Below, one piece after another: positions 3,084-63,118 of a DNA stretch of 64,000 nt. Below the pieces are notes generated by a model. That model had not been told where the DNA came from. It worked only from the letters and a program-made list of their open reading frames with translations, and did not search any database. The stretch comes from Eledone cirrhosa. Lineage: Eukaryota. Numbering within the stretch: the stretch's first letter is position 1; each line of letters opens with the position of its first letter. The position numbers and the translations under genes are program-made. Location of the stretch: positions 116,374,001 through 116,438,000 of the forward strand of contig OZ024745.1 in assembly GCA_964016885.1 (NCBI GenBank), written 5' to 3'.

Positions 3084-3179
3084 ACCCCCTGAAAAGTTCG
3101 GCTATTTATTTACCAGGGTAAAAATTATAATTTAGTCTAGAAATAGCCGTAGAAACGGCTTGAGCTCTGCCGTCGGGGT
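3084..3179 (+). ncRNA. Degenerate type I hammerhead ribozyme
   Basis: acccc-CTGAAAA-g(ttcggctattt...aaatagccgta)-GAAA-cggc ttgagctct gcc-GTC-ggggt. Stems I, II and III and a GUC triplet are present; G8 is A. Confidence 0.6.
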
Positions 3180-3269
3180 CATACATTTTACTATTACCCT
3201 CTCTGCTACCCTAAGTATGAATACTCTGGTGCATTATGGTCCATCTGGTTCCTTACCACAACTCCTTCG

Positions 3270-4585
3270 TTATATATCGAAGCGATTCCTCGAAGTGCTG
3301 GAGACGAACGGGTACCCTACCCCGCTCACAAACAGAGTAAGAGACACCAGACACAAGAGACAGAGAAACACCCAAGGCAAGTGCTTCCTTAAAATACCAC
3401 ACCTGGGCGAGAATACCACCAACGCTATCCGCAAGGCTATACGGAGGGAGGGCCTCGACATCCACCTGGCCCACTCGGGCCCCTCCCTGCGAAGATGCCT
3501 CTCCAGGAAACCCGGGAAATCAAATGACGGGTGCTCCCTCAGAGACTGCCCGATGCGCCATACGAACTGTTGCCTACGCACATACGTCGTGTATAAGATA
3601 GAATGTAACAAGTGCAACCAATACTATATATGTAGCACAATCAGGCCGCTGCACATCCGGATCAAGGAGCACACTAGCACCAGGGCCTCGTCTTTCTGGA
3701 AACACATAGCTAAATGCGGAAACAAAGACGGAAGGCCCATTGTCACAATTCTAGCGACAGAAAGAAACGTCGGCACATTACGATTAAATGAAGCACTTTG
3801 GATCAAACGCCTAGGGCGACAAATAAACAACCGATCCGAGAGAAGCGAAATGAGGTGGTTGGTTTAAGTAAACAAACGATGCAGCAACACACGCACACAC
3901 GCACACACACAAGCGAGACAGCAACACACACAAGCGAGACAGCAACACACGCACAAACACACACACACAGTAGCATTCCACCATACGAACATACTACACT
4001 GACAATACAGACGAACGAGGCAACAACACACACACACACACACACACACTCAAGCGAGACAACAAAACACGCACACACACACACACACACACACACACAC
4101 AGTAACATTCACCAAACAGGCAGAGAATACTATGGACTGACAGCTAACGCCACCCCACTCCCACAATTGAAAGAACTATTTCGGCCGCCGACCTCTGCTT
4201 GACCGACCCAATTTCACGCGCACACGCGCTCTGCTGAATACCTCAGATATTCAAAACAACGAACAGCGGAGGACACGTGTCGCACCTTTCCGCCAGACCC
4301 CCCCCCCCGGAAAAACTCCCCGGTTGATGGATGTGAATCCGAAATATAAGGGACAATTAAATCTCTCCCAAGGTAACTCTATCTCGTGTTATTATTTTTA
4401 TCCTTTACGGTCTTTCCGACATTCTTCTACACGCTACACATCTCAACGTACACTCACTTACATCTCTCTCTCCACCACCGGATCTTGTTACCCGGAGATT
4501 TACCCATCTGCATTGTCGAGGCTTCCAAAACGACTTAAAGAAATATATCTTATTATTCCACAATGCTTCAAGCAAACTTCAATAC
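3270..4585 (+). mobile_element. Penelope-like element, 3' part (GIY-YIG endonuclease plus 3' terminal region)
   Basis: ORF 3160-3867 contains VVYKIECNKCNQYYICSTIRPLHIRIKEH...LRLNEALWIK...INNR, followed by a CA-rich non-coding tail. Confidence 0.85.
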
Positions 4586-5579
4586 TCTCTTATATATATA
4601 TATATATATGTGTGGGGGGTTAACATGTACAATATTAGTGAGAGTGATAATAGGGAGAGTAACGCACACACACACACACACACACACACACACTCACACA
4701 CACATACACACACACACACATATATATATATATATATATATATATATATATATATATATATATATATAGAGAGAGAGAGAGAGATATATAGATACATATA
4801 TATATGAGGATACAAAAATCTATATATGATATGTATCTATATGTGTGCATGTCTGATTCGATGAATATACATATGTATGTGTAAGTACATTTCGGAGACA
4901 GTAAATTGATTTAAAACCGTTATTACAACTATATAATACATAAATATAACACGACAGTGGCCATACATTACAGAAAACAAGTTCATAAAAGAATAATAAA
5001 TGTTACTTCGCACGTATTTATGAGTATTTTCTTGGTAATATGTATACTATGAATTCATCCATATGATGAAATCAATGCGATAATATATTTTAAATATCTA
5101 CATTTATTCACGAGATGAGATACGAAAGTTTAACATAAATTTGTGAATATAGAATGCATAGAATATGAATCGTTCATGAAATATTTTCAAAATCAGCTCT
5201 AAAATGTTAAATATCAATATTGTAAACAAGAAATACGAATAAATAACGGAAATAAATTCACATCGGTTATATCACATTTGATAGAGAACGACATTATATA
5301 TGCAGAAATCATATTTAAAAGGTGTTATTAGATGAAACTATGTCTTCAAGTGAATTTTATGTAAAAGCCTTATAGTTATATCGTCATATATACCATAATA
5401 CAGTGCAATACACAAATATAACAACAATACAAAGACACAAGTTAAAAATGTGATGAGGGTCTTAATCAATTGTTACGTGGTATATGTTAAATCTCCTTTT
5501 CGAAAACGAGGTGACAGTAGAATCTATGTTTGCCTTGCCATAACATTGATACATATGCCAAAACATTGTGCATACACAC

Positions 5580-5732
5580 TGAGGTGTTCAGTAGCTCCTC
5601 AAACATCAAAGTCTGTTGGGAAGTTAGTGGCACAGAAAGGTCAGTCATAGTAAAGTCACCTAGCATGTCCTTCAGCGCATGCTCTGTAATCCGACCCAAT
5701 GAAAAGTGTTCCAGGTAGAACAGAAACTCCAG
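5580..5732 (-). CDS. Candidate internal coding exon of an unidentified host gene (LEFLFYLEHFSLGRITEHALKDMLGDFTMTDLSVPLTSQQTLMFEELLNTS)
   Basis: ttttAG acceptor, 153 nt open phase 0/0, GTGTGT donor, GC higher than flanks, no recognisable TE motif. Confidence 0.5.
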
Positions 5733-60245: not shown

Positions 60246-60295
60246 GAACTGCATACACTAATGTTTCTGGGTATCACCCTTCATCAGTACAGTTC
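60246..60295 (-). ncRNA. Type I hammerhead ribozyme (GUA)
   Basis: Identical to 59812-59861 except that the cleavage triplet is GUA. Confidence 0.85.
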
Positions 60296-60544
60296 ACTGT
60301 TCACCTGCCAACTGTCAAGGCTAGTGAAAATATATGCTAATTGCATAATATCTATATATACAAATGGAAGTTCAGTAGAATCGAACCTCCTGCTGCGGCC
60401 AAGCTAACGAATGTAATCCGGAATGTGCAGCTAATCACTAATATATATACCTATATATATATATATATGTATATATATATATATATATATATATATATAT
60501 ATATATATATATATATATATATATATATATATATATATATATAT

Positions 60545-62835
60545 AGTGGTGGAACACTGGAAGGTAATATCCGTTTTGGTAGAGCACTCAGTCCATGGGA
60601 CGAGTTAGGTAGAGGTGGTTACACAACAGTTAGTTCACCATACAGGAAACAATTGTTTCACCTTAGCGGATCCTCAGCTCGGAATGGGCATGGTTATAGG
60701 AACAGGAAGGACAACCGTACGAACGCGCATGCGCAGAAACCCGGTCATTTCACACAGGCAATACTATAATGCGTGCGAGAGGTGTAAGGGAGATAACTGC
60801 GAAAGTCCGAAAAGTTTTTAGTTGAAAAATAAAATTACAAAGAATCAGTCCGGAGCCTTGTAGTTATGTAATAAGTGCTTGGCGACGTCTGGACAACGTG
60901 TGAAAAATTGATTTCTCGTGTTTATGCAATCTCTATTGCGTAATCTCTTTAGACTAGTTATTCGTTCGTCAATACATAAGCCACACGTCGGATTTCCCCT
61001 TGCGTATGGCTTGGACTTAGTGATGGATTTCCAATGAATGGAGTAGTCTATACTTGAGTCCTTGAGGGACCATACATGGCTCGTGAGAGTCGTGGATGAA
61101 CGTCCGTCCGGGTACCTGAAGGTAGACTGGTGGTTCAGGAAACGTTCCTTAAATCGTCCCTCCGCCATGCCCACATAGGATTTGATCTCCTGTAGTTCGT
61201 TTGGTCGGTTGGAAGTGACCACAGCTTCATAAATTACAGCTGGTGTGTTGCATTGCTGTTGAAGGGGGCAAGCATCAGGCTTACGGCAAGAGCACCCTAG
61301 TGGGATGTTGCTCCTAGGGCTGCTGGTGATGTAGGCCTTCATGTTCTTAGCGCAGGGGTATCCTAGTTTAACTTAGTGTCGGTTAACTTAGTGTCGGTTA
61401 AAGATGGAGCGGTATTTATGACTTATGGCAACGTGTATATCTAAGAGGGTTAGACATTTTTTCCTACATTGGTTTTAACGTTGAGTGAGAAGGGAGGAGA
61501 GAACCAGATAGTTTGTCTATTGTTGTGCTAACTTTTCCTAATGGTGTTGTTGCTAGTGGGAGAGTAAGTGAGAGGTTGTGAGAAGCCGCTATTAGCTAAC
61601 GCCGTGTTATAGTAGGGTGCCGCCCTGTCAAAGATAGCCTTATTAGAGGAGAGGTTTGAGATTCTAGTACTGATATTCTTAACGAAGTTTCTAAAAACAG
61701 TGGGAGGGTGGCATGAGTCCTTGTGAATGTAATTGAGTTTCTCGTTTAGCTTATGGAAGGGTCTGTGGGTGTGTGTGCGAAGGTCTAAATTAATGTCTAA
61801 GAAATCTACGCTAGAGAGGTTGGTGACTACTGTTATCCTAAGTCCTAACTCATTGAAGATAGAAGCTAAGTCTTTTTTAAACCGGTTGAGGTCGTGACCA
61901 CTTTTATGGCTCGATAAAGTCAGTCCATCGTCGCAGTATATTCCCGTGTTGAAGTCCGGGAATCTAACACGTAATATGTCTAAGATAAATAGGCCAACCA
62001 AGTCACATACGTCAGCACTGTCAAACGATCCCATGGAGACGTCGAATAGGTCTGAAGTTGCAGACTTCTTTGCCCAGGCTACTTCGTCGTTGAAGAGTAG
62101 GGCTTTTTCGGCAGTGAGCGATGATTTCCCTGTCTAAACCATCGACGGTGGTATAAGTGGTAGCGAAGTCCAACGCTTTGTTTAACAGGGTCTCTGAGAT
62201 CGACGGGTAAAAATCGACAATGTCAAACTGTGTGAACTTAGCTTTTTTGGATTTTAAGGAGTTAAACCACTTAATTACGGAGTCGCTGTTCTCCCACTTG
62301 GGCAGGTTGGACTTGGTCCTAATGATCTTAACTATGTTTCTAAGTATGGCCGTACTGATTAGTCCCATATCTGTGCGTGCCGGGTTTCTTAGTCTACATG
62401 TGGGATTAGAAGTAAAGTCTACCTTGTGATCTTTCAGGGCGAGGGACGCCTCCCGCTTAGCTAGAGATTGTAGCTTCTTATCTACCTTAAGGTCGGCGGC
62501 AAGTTCCTTGGCCTATGTATTAATGTCGTGGTAGGCCATAGGGTTAGCTTTCTTATAATTAGAAGTAATAGCGTTATGGACCAGGTGGGTGAAAGTGGTG
62601 TTGTCGACTTCGTAAAATGATTAGTTTTGTCGGAAAGAACGAAGGTGTTATTAGAAGACCTAAATTTCTTAATATCATTTCTGAGTTTCGTTTAAAAGGT
62701 GTTAGTGTGTTTGCGAAAGGAAATGTTAGCGACTAAGTCAAGAAGGTCCATCTCGAAAGGAGCAAGTTCATTTACCTTAGGAGGGTAGGCTCTAGATTTC
62801 AGGTTGAATGTGTTGTTGGTGCCTGTAATTTTCCC
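60545..62835 (-). mobile_element. Penelope-like element, long frameshifted copy (RT plus GIY-YIG plus 3' terminal region)
   Basis: FDIVDFYPSI, MGSFDSADVCDLVG, YCDDG, FLDINL, CSCRKPDACPL, VIYEA...SYVG. Confidence 0.92.
60643..60682 (-). ncRNA. Minimal hammerhead in the PLE 3' terminal region
   Basis: CTGAGGA-tcc gctaa ggt-GAAA-caatt-GTT; palindromic ACAATTGT; stem I eroded. Confidence 0.6.
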
Positions 62836-62859
62836 GTCATATATATATATATATATACG

Positions 62860-63118
62860 GAAAAAAGATGAAATCGAATATGCATCTGGAGTCTTTTTTT
62901 ATTTAATATATATTTATTTGGTTCCTTTACATATTTCGCAGTTCTTCAACTTTTCAAATGTAGGATTGAGATGGAGGGTCTGTGGTTTACAGACCCTCCA
63001 TCTCAACTCACCTTTTGAAAAGCCGAAGAACTACGAAACCGGTAAAGGAACCAAATAAATATATATATTTTTTTTTTAAATAAGACTTCAGTTGCATTTT
63101 CGATTTCATCTCTTTTTC
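62860..63118. repeat. ~260-bp palindrome with HHR-like motifs
   Basis: Perfect 18-bp core arms ttgagatggagggtctgt/acagaccctccatctcaa with diverged outer arms. Confidence 0.88.
63011..63048 (+). ncRNA. Minimal hammerhead variant with a U3-A8 core
   Basis: cctt-TTGAAAA-gccgaagaactac-GAAA-ccg-GTA-aagg; stem II poor. Confidence 0.5.

Follow-up and report, generated by a model that had tools for sequence, protein, structure and literature searches.

The window analyzed here is a 64-kb stretch of the 3.0-Gb genome of Eledone cirrhosa (positions 116374001-116438000 of contig OZ024745.1). It contains type I hammerhead ribozyme (HHR) motifs, remnants of Penelope-like elements (PLEs), and short non-coding repeats bearing HHRs, many of which lie close to TA microsatellites (Table 1). 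Together with a background sample, these features suggest that the genome is very probably saturated with HHR-bearing PLE 3' ends and short non-coding HHR repeats, the latter likely being inserted into (TA)n by PLEs. A preliminary description of the window listed ~18 HHR motifs from ~8 unrelated families. Seventeen of the 18 positions are homologous to type I HHR families that have descriptor-intact members, and these 17 motifs group into 9 families. The families are partly related: A, B, and the family of 13534 have body sequence in common, and those of 11337 and 17068 cross-hit. The remaining position, 3084, was rejected as an HHR. It is PLE coding sequence upstream of the frame that starts at 3136, and the CTGANGA box is absent from the five homologues spanning it.

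Table 1. Features of the 64-kb window; positions count from its first base, and a point marks features with motifs or arms on both strands.
Feature	Position	Strand	Remarks
CCHH-type PLE remnant	3136..4590	+	GIY-YIG frame 3136-3864; 3' untranslated region (UTR) runs into (TA)n; canonical HHR absent
Second CCHH-type PLE remnant	9850..10945	-	Reverse transcriptase and GIY-YIG pieces
Intact type I HHR	11319..11409	+	Long helix II, palindromic helix III; element flanked by TA tracts
Family D with PLE fragment	11630..13081	.	Frame 12004-12420 (+); inverted arms; degenerate HHRs 11736 (-) and 12975 (+)
Degenerate HHR, A/B group	13527..13561	+	One core change
Degenerate HHR	14172..14271	+	G8C
Family A retrozyme-like copy	14624..14996	+	Unit ~429 nt; intact HHR 14725; short 3' end; internal TA seed grown to 17 units (14884-14917)
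Fifth PLE remnant	16765..17025	-	Endonuclease piece, related to the 60848 frame
HHR	17058..17133	+	Core intact; helix I interrupted after 3 bp
Family A tandem	19793..20525	-	Intact HHRs 20472 and 20041 at a distance of 431 nt; runs into (TA)n with a short 3' end
Family C two-armed array	30120..31769	.	Unit ~307-319 nt; two HHRs on the minus and three on the plus strand, no strict-intact one among them; exceptionally, both arms stop at the long site
Family E HHR remnant	33378..33423	+	Heavily degenerate
Family E head-to-head palindrome	40286..40796	.	HHRs 40478 (-) and 40545 (+); long and short end, both in (TA)n
Family B tandem	59640..60351	-	Unit 434 nt; intact HHRs 60287 and 59853; 3' part split by a short interspersed element (SINE) piece, then ends in (TA)n
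Hydra-type PLE remnant	60546..62838	-	Reverse transcriptase and endonuclease, broken frames; (TA)n on either side; HHR at 60677 within the 3' pseudo-long terminal repeat (pseudo-LTR), helix I damaged
Family G head-to-head palindrome	62857..63185	.	U3-A8 HHRs 62957 (-) and 63015 (+), helix II degenerate in both

In type I HHRs, helices I-III surround a CUGANGA/GAAA/UH core, and self-cleavage is predicted at the NUH triplet. A strict type I descriptor (exact core, helix I of at least 4 bp, helix II of at least 3 bp, and NUH) was satisfied by six window motifs, namely 11337 (+), 14725 (+), 20041 (-), 20472 (-), 59853 (-), and 60287 (-), whereas 100 local dinucleotide shuffles averaged 0.01 matches and never gave more than 1. 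The other 11 of the 17 motifs are degenerate, as had been noted for many, through core or stem changes such as G12A at 12975 and a broken helix I at 17068 and 60677. Profile hidden Markov models (HMMs) made from intact motifs lying outside the window recovered 21 HHR homologues in 10 families in the window, 11 on the plus and 10 on the minus strand and including 17 of the 18 listed, and gave no match in the shuffled window or the shuffled background. HHRs additional to the 18 listed are degenerate (11736 -, 14189 +, 33378 +, and 62957 -) or weaker (13534 +). For the degenerate motifs, intact relatives were found by alignment. In family C, a proximal helix I of 3 bp is supplemented by a distal stem, helix II is 2 bp in family F and long in family D, and family G has the U3-A8 core known from Schistosoma PLEs (PMC4209133). 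The core of the family at 63011 reads TTGAAAA (U3-A8), not the CCGAAGA register. At least two families have such a core (TTGATAA or TTGAAAA), which was seen in loci L124, L143, L163, and L177, at 62857-63185 of the window, and in six of 146 background matches.

All four PLE open reading frame remnants that had been reported are present, and a fifth was found. The remnant at 60546-62838 is short (2.3 kb) with a 3' HHR and (TA)n, and carries the CxCX5C linker (CSCRKPDAC) and the DKT motif (LSDKT). CCHH is absent by eye, and in place of an RWK motif the window copy shows only PKWEN; five of seven relatives encode 640-724 aa. By the CxCX5C and DKT motifs and the lack of CCHH, we assign it to the Hydra clade as a putative Hydra-type PLE. 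With probes covering two PLE groups only, PLE coding matches were detected near 17 of 20 family F loci but near few loci of A (3/30), B (2/10), C (4/30), and G (1/20). Judged by these probes, F is the terminal repeat of a coding PLE, and A, B, C, and G are not. A further observation concerns the 3' UTR of the CCHH-type PLE, which carries a conserved hammerhead-like motif at 4330-4355 (+), seen also in L271-L289, L084, L094, L172, and L186. It comprises a CCC/GGG helix I, a GGAT-loop-ATCC helix II, GAAA, a palindromic helix III, and AUA, with AGUUGAU where CUGANGA is expected; GTTGATGGAT is retained in 24 of the 26 aligned copies, diverged ones included. This motif is a candidate for a dead ribozyme or a ribozyme of an unknown variant.

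The preliminary description regarded the HHR density of the window as high, which holds against the shuffles but not against the rest of the genome. The background comprised 119 10-kb stretches at evenly spaced round coordinates of large contigs (1,189,600 bases). In this sample, we detected 118 strict HHRs, corresponding to 99/Mb (bootstrap 95% interval 63-145), against 0-1 in shuffles; three array stretches contribute 39 of them, and merging within 700 bp leaves 57 loci/Mb. An extended descriptor gave 146 matches, or 123/Mb (83-170). The probability of finding at least six strict motifs in 64 kb is 0.40 from the background sample. For all homologues, the background value of 203/Mb (152-262) compares with 328/Mb in the window (21 against a median of 11, P = 0.13), the HMM set being enriched for window families. 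The window was thus rejected as a local hot spot. It is an average sample of a ribozyme-saturated genome with dozens of HHR families and about one strict motif per 10 kb. Extrapolated by hand to 2,996 Mb, the genome would contain ~300,000 strict motifs (190,000-440,000), or ~600,000 counting degenerate copies. Published counts, which used other descriptors and therefore allow only a rough comparison, include 126,247 in axolotl, >6,000 in coral, and ~5,000 in mussel (PMC7229834), and ~2,000 in Schistosoma, ~4,000 in coelacanth, and ~9,000 in Xenopus (PMC4209133). The extrapolated number in 3 Gb exceeds even the largest of the counts compared, that of the 28-Gb axolotl genome. Our literature searches found no octopus or cephalopod HHR census, although the supplements of HHR papers may contain cephalopod counts, and the word 'ribozyme' is absent from the main text of an Octopus vulgaris repeat paper. 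Young, near-identical arrays with units of 310-556 nt were also observed in L142 (~24-28 kb downstream of the window), L092, L097, L123, and L189, with motifs on both strands in L092 and L142. The body of the 310-nt L092 array is common with family C (66-77% in pieces, compared with window 30120-31769) while its hammerhead differs, which suggests ribozyme replacement within one body.

The association with TA repeats extends beyond the background. All six island-TA abutments named in the preliminary description are present, and 13 of the 17 motifs lie within 300 bp of (TA)5, versus 29% of random positions (shift permutation P = 0.005; median P = 0.03). TA density is 13.9 tracts per 10 kb in the window, half the genome value of 27.8. 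In 139 background and flank stretches, (TA)5 occurred within 300 bp downstream in 99 of 111 collapsed loci against a control of 32%, and within 300 bp upstream in 51 of 109 loci against 33%. SINE 3' ends had (TA)5 within 300 bp downstream in 40 of 139 cases (29%). The TA link is thus a property of the 3' ends of the elements. The proposed system of PLEs plus non-autonomous ribozyme elements and its tie to (TA)n find genome-wide support, and the tie shows a 3' polarity. It had been left open whether the system targets or generates (TA)n. Targeting is better supported, and generation applies in a restricted sense, as the internal (TA)5-6 seeds of family A reach 10-42 units in seven of 79 copies, one of them in the window. 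A SINE-like family of ~190 bp (window 5969-6148, 9169-9349, and 18464-18652, plus ~12 more) gave 199 matches in 1.39 Mb and showed no TA association.

Families A, B, and C are non-coding units of ~429 (422-429), 434, and ~307-319 nt, respectively, occurring as monomers, tandems, and inverted pairs. As in retrozymes, which are non-coding tandem units of 150-450 bp with low GC, each unit carries one HHR; the GC content of A and B is 0.37-0.38, and folding of the predicted circles of single units gives z of -3.7 to -9.5. For A (20041/20472) and B (59853/60287), the window has adjacent units that both carry a complete HHR. The C array of the window has no such pair, but its relatives are intact. 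Same-strand tandem units were not recovered for D, E, G, and the families of 11337 and 17068, which are single or head-to-head. Across the A group, helix I changes are compensatory (GATG/CATC, GTTG/CAGC, and TATTG/CAATA). Among the 146 background matches, the cleavage triplet is NUA or NUU in 138, helix II mostly opens with a mismatch (U-U in 65, with G10.1-C11.1 in a minority of 22), and a short palindromic helix III is found in 60%.

Mapping of the 3' ends left out pieces that were low-complexity only, lay at stretch edges, or continued internally, as well as the long arrays L092, L123, L142, and L189. Two fixed 3' sites per family take 134 of the 151 terminal ends (A 56/61, B 20/27, and C 58/63), located 217/274 (A), 143/170 (B), and 130/155-161 nt (C) downstream of the predicted point of cleavage, and 117 of the 151 ends enter TA. 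The same pattern was found in G (80/141), E (158/217), the CCHH-type PLE (200-205/242), and the Hydra-type PLE (33-45/102). Altogether, all seven families mapped, coding and non-coding, have two fixed 3' sites 33-274 nt past the predicted cleavage site together with variable 5' ends, and all bear PLE-type insertion marks (5' truncation, inverted arm, and one-sided tail). Of the 151 copies in families A, B, and C, 74 extend over more than a single unit. Thirty head-to-head pairs were found in these three families, 23 of which have both ends at a fixed site, and the latter comprise 20 long+short, three long+long, and no short+short pairs (binomial P ~2e-4, by hand). The family E palindrome of the window likewise pairs a long with a short end. 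Two ends and long+short pairing would be the trace of the reaction described for a purified PLE (PMC11167929) if one site served each target end. Four family A ends next to (TC)n lie at 267-268 whereas 26 next to (TA)n lie at 274; this shift with the flanking repeat, albeit in a small sample, fits priming on an existing repeat with short microhomology. Small bulged hairpins ~5 nt past the short end were noticed in B (minimum free energy fold) and F (by eye); they were weak in A and absent in the C copy used.

We propose that the PLE GIY-YIG endonuclease would nick a TA tract on both strands and that the reverse transcriptase would extend both target ends from two internal RNA start sites. Since the ends do not coincide with the cleavage site and roughly half of the copies exceed one unit, the template is probably a multimeric or circular RNA, two forms that are indistinguishable here. 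The hammerheads would serve the elements, acting mainly as dimers to cut multimers, and single copies in the genome are likely to be inert for the most part. The (TA)5-6 seeds of family A may create new TA tracts and hence more targets. As the non-coding units bear the PLE footprint, they would be mobilized in trans by PLE enzymes. Several points weigh against this proposal. Both PLE types leave the two-end footprint, so that a mobilizer cannot be assigned to each non-coding family, and RNA, cleavage, and circles are predictions here, none of them observed. Non-inverted 5' flanks are TA in just 19 of 67 cases, fewer than a cut within the tract predicts. Family B fits worst, with 11 of 27 ends in TA, and the C array of the window itself is long+long, with one arm lacking TA. 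The A, B, and C copies were mostly retrieved by best-hit searches in which the query spanned the HHR, a source of bias in length and age. A search for empty sites in paralogous repeats with 113 insertions returned two matches, both artefacts, and thus no valid one. For the purified anole PLE, the start site shows no homology to the target and the HHR is dispensable (PMC11167929), in contrast to the hint of microhomology here. Besides, no empty allele was found for 13400-21000 in contigs from three runs of one sample, the summed depths of which give no copy number.

Other explanations of the same data were considered. The TA tracts may have been written by the PLE reverse transcriptase at insertion, through telomerase-like slippage on a UA patch, instead of being pre-existing targets. 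TA is far commoner at 3' ends than at the non-inverted 5' flanks, the ends coincide with TA-like patches of the unit, and TA tracts make up 5.9% of the genome sample, all of which would suit such writing. Nevertheless, we consider it quite unlikely, as some ends enter (TC)n, (TG)n, (TCA)n, or compound repeats, the 28% of 5' flanks with TA still exceed the 6% of random positions that have a tract no more than 30 bp away (the cut-offs differ), and Hydra and Naiad PLEs are listed as preferring (TA)n for insertion (PMC8557442). Classical L1 twin priming was not adopted; it expects the 5' breakpoint of the long arm at the short site, and by eye such a breakpoint was near that site in ~5 of 11 C pairs and in none of the A or B pairs.

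It is also conceivable, if unlikely as a general account, that the non-coding units are truncated pseudo-LTRs of autonomous PLEs amplified later as DNA satellites rather than RNAs mobilized as elements of their own. PLEs are normally 5'-truncated, family D flanks a PLE fragment in the window, and the probes reached only two PLE groups. On the other hand, the scarcity of PLE coding sequence near A, B, C, and G relative to F is hard to reconcile with this origin, A, B, and C copies cross the unit junction into the next unit with no open reading frame, and the arrays are two-armed with fixed outer ends. A truncated pseudo-LTR is plausible for D, E, G, 11337, and 17068, monomer families for which no parent was found. 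That the motifs are chance matches in AT-rich repetitive DNA has next to no probability. Failure of the strict descriptor by most valid motifs, the one false motif, and an Rfam scan of the window (E up to 10) in which no hammerhead was among the best 150 of 169 matches, all of these being microRNA hits driven by microsatellites, might be cited in its favor, but it is refuted by the shuffles, the background sample, and the HMM controls, and the compensatory helix I changes speak against it as well.

The preliminary description further supposed that, if the window is intronic on the minus strand, intact HHRs on that strand could cut the host pre-mRNA. Four of the five HHRs named, listed at 20005, 20436, 59812, and 60246 (20041, 20472, 59853, and 60287 in this study), are indeed intact; that at 30272 is not, as the C array has no strict-intact motif. 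Both HHRs of each minus-strand tandem (20041/20472 and 59853/60287) are intact and, if transcribed, could fold as dimers and release monomers, and conserved intronic HHRs are known in amniotes (PMC6155905). Cleavage or regulation of a host pre-mRNA is nonetheless very improbable and unsupported here because no host exon was established and the strands are balanced, with no strand bias in the window or in the 190-kb flank (13+/9-, one array stretch excluded). The window copies are ordinary members of high-copy families, and one of nine Xenopus dimers was cleaved in vitro (bioRxiv 10.64898/2026.07.22.740005). In A-type motifs, helix III depends on dimer formation and a helix II base is mismatched; motifs of this type show weak cleavage in vitro (PMC7229834, PMC4209133), and for an axolotl motif of that build, cleavage of the monomer reached 22% within one hour and was better for the dimer (PMC7229834). 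Domesticated intronic HHRs are single-copy, conserved, and on the sense strand of an intron; the families here are multicopy, and no gene was established.

Of 153 candidate frames, 50 of them in the window, 89 (38 in the window) were compared with Pfam, and the only matches were to Helitron and zinc-finger domains in the flanks: Helitron Rep and PIF1 helicase frames ~40 kb upstream (L135:8574-9401 and L136:516-1244, -) and a C2H2 zinc-finger frame ~68 kb downstream (L146:7574-8050, -). A PDB search with three frames returned no match at E < 0.4, protein collections searched with two frames no credible match, and a splice-signal scan one low-complexity candidate. These blanks do not show that the window is intergenic. 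Four unique, protein-like short minus-strand frames (5490-5732, 16101-16244, 24104-24277, and 54451-54699), for which no credible homologue was found, are possible but unproven exons.

HHRs in PLEs, retrozymes, the targeting of (TA)n, and the use of two start sites have already been published. The minimal and variant HHRs of metazoan PLE pseudo-LTRs (Cervera and de la Pena, 2014; PMC4209133) resemble ours in the type I fold with a short palindromic helix III, in mostly dispersed single motifs, in opposite-strand pairs, and in the U3-A8 core variant. The counts there are ~2,000-9,000, versus ~300,000 extrapolated here, and G10.1-C11.1 is a minority here. The units share with non-LTR retrozymes of metazoans (Cervera and de la Pena, 2020, PMC7229834; Li, Clavereau and Pollet, 2026, bioRxiv 10.64898/2026.07.22.740005) a non-coding tandem organization (307-556 nt), less than 45% GC, a single type I HHR in each unit, predicted circles that fold well, and PLE co-occurrence, and they have the same U-U helix II base as axolotl HHR_Amex2. 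The axolotl density is ~4.5/Mb versus ~100/Mb here. Circles and cleavage have been demonstrated for published retrozymes, whereas ours are predicted from sequence. Two fixed 3' ends, insertions with two arms, and the targeting of (TA)n were not found in the portions of the retrozyme reports available to us.

The Hydra-clade PLEs, including Hydra-1_Obim (Craig et al., 2021; PMC8557442), insert into (TA)n and have in common with the 60546-62838 element the CxCX5C linker, DKT, the lack of CCHH, a 3' HHR, and (TA)n on the flanks. Arms that are inverted and 5'-truncated and a tail on one side only are further shared features; the tail here is ~57-69 nt in F, A, E, and G, versus 30-40 bp stated for PLEs. 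A purified anole Poseidon PLE (Frangieh et al., 2024; PMC11167929) cuts and extends both strands, and its two internal start sites on the RNA delimit the tail of genomic copies. That study did not include non-coding RNAs in trans; here, the end shifts with the flanking repeat in four copies.

Thus, the local finding is ordinary for this genome, and known parts occur genome-wide at an unusual scale. Neither this scale of HHRs nor the PLE footprint on non-coding units was found described in our literature searches. The retrozyme papers propose mobilization by PLEs because of co-occurrence and phylogeny. Direct genomic evidence for that route comes from the PLE footprint of two start sites on units that are non-coding, and the mapped start sites make a trans-mobilization assay straightforward. 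More tentatively, this may be the most hammerhead-dense animal genome on record, brought to that state by a self-feeding loop in which PLE enzymes copy small circular or dimeric ribozyme RNAs at either end of a cut TA repeat, with two fixed starts determined by microhomology of a few bases, and the inserted units seed further TA repeats, a possibility that we regard as doubtful rather than likely. If it is true, one motif per 10 kb implies that long pre-mRNAs would routinely contain ribozymes, and selection against sense-strand intronic copies, or host silencing, should be measurable.

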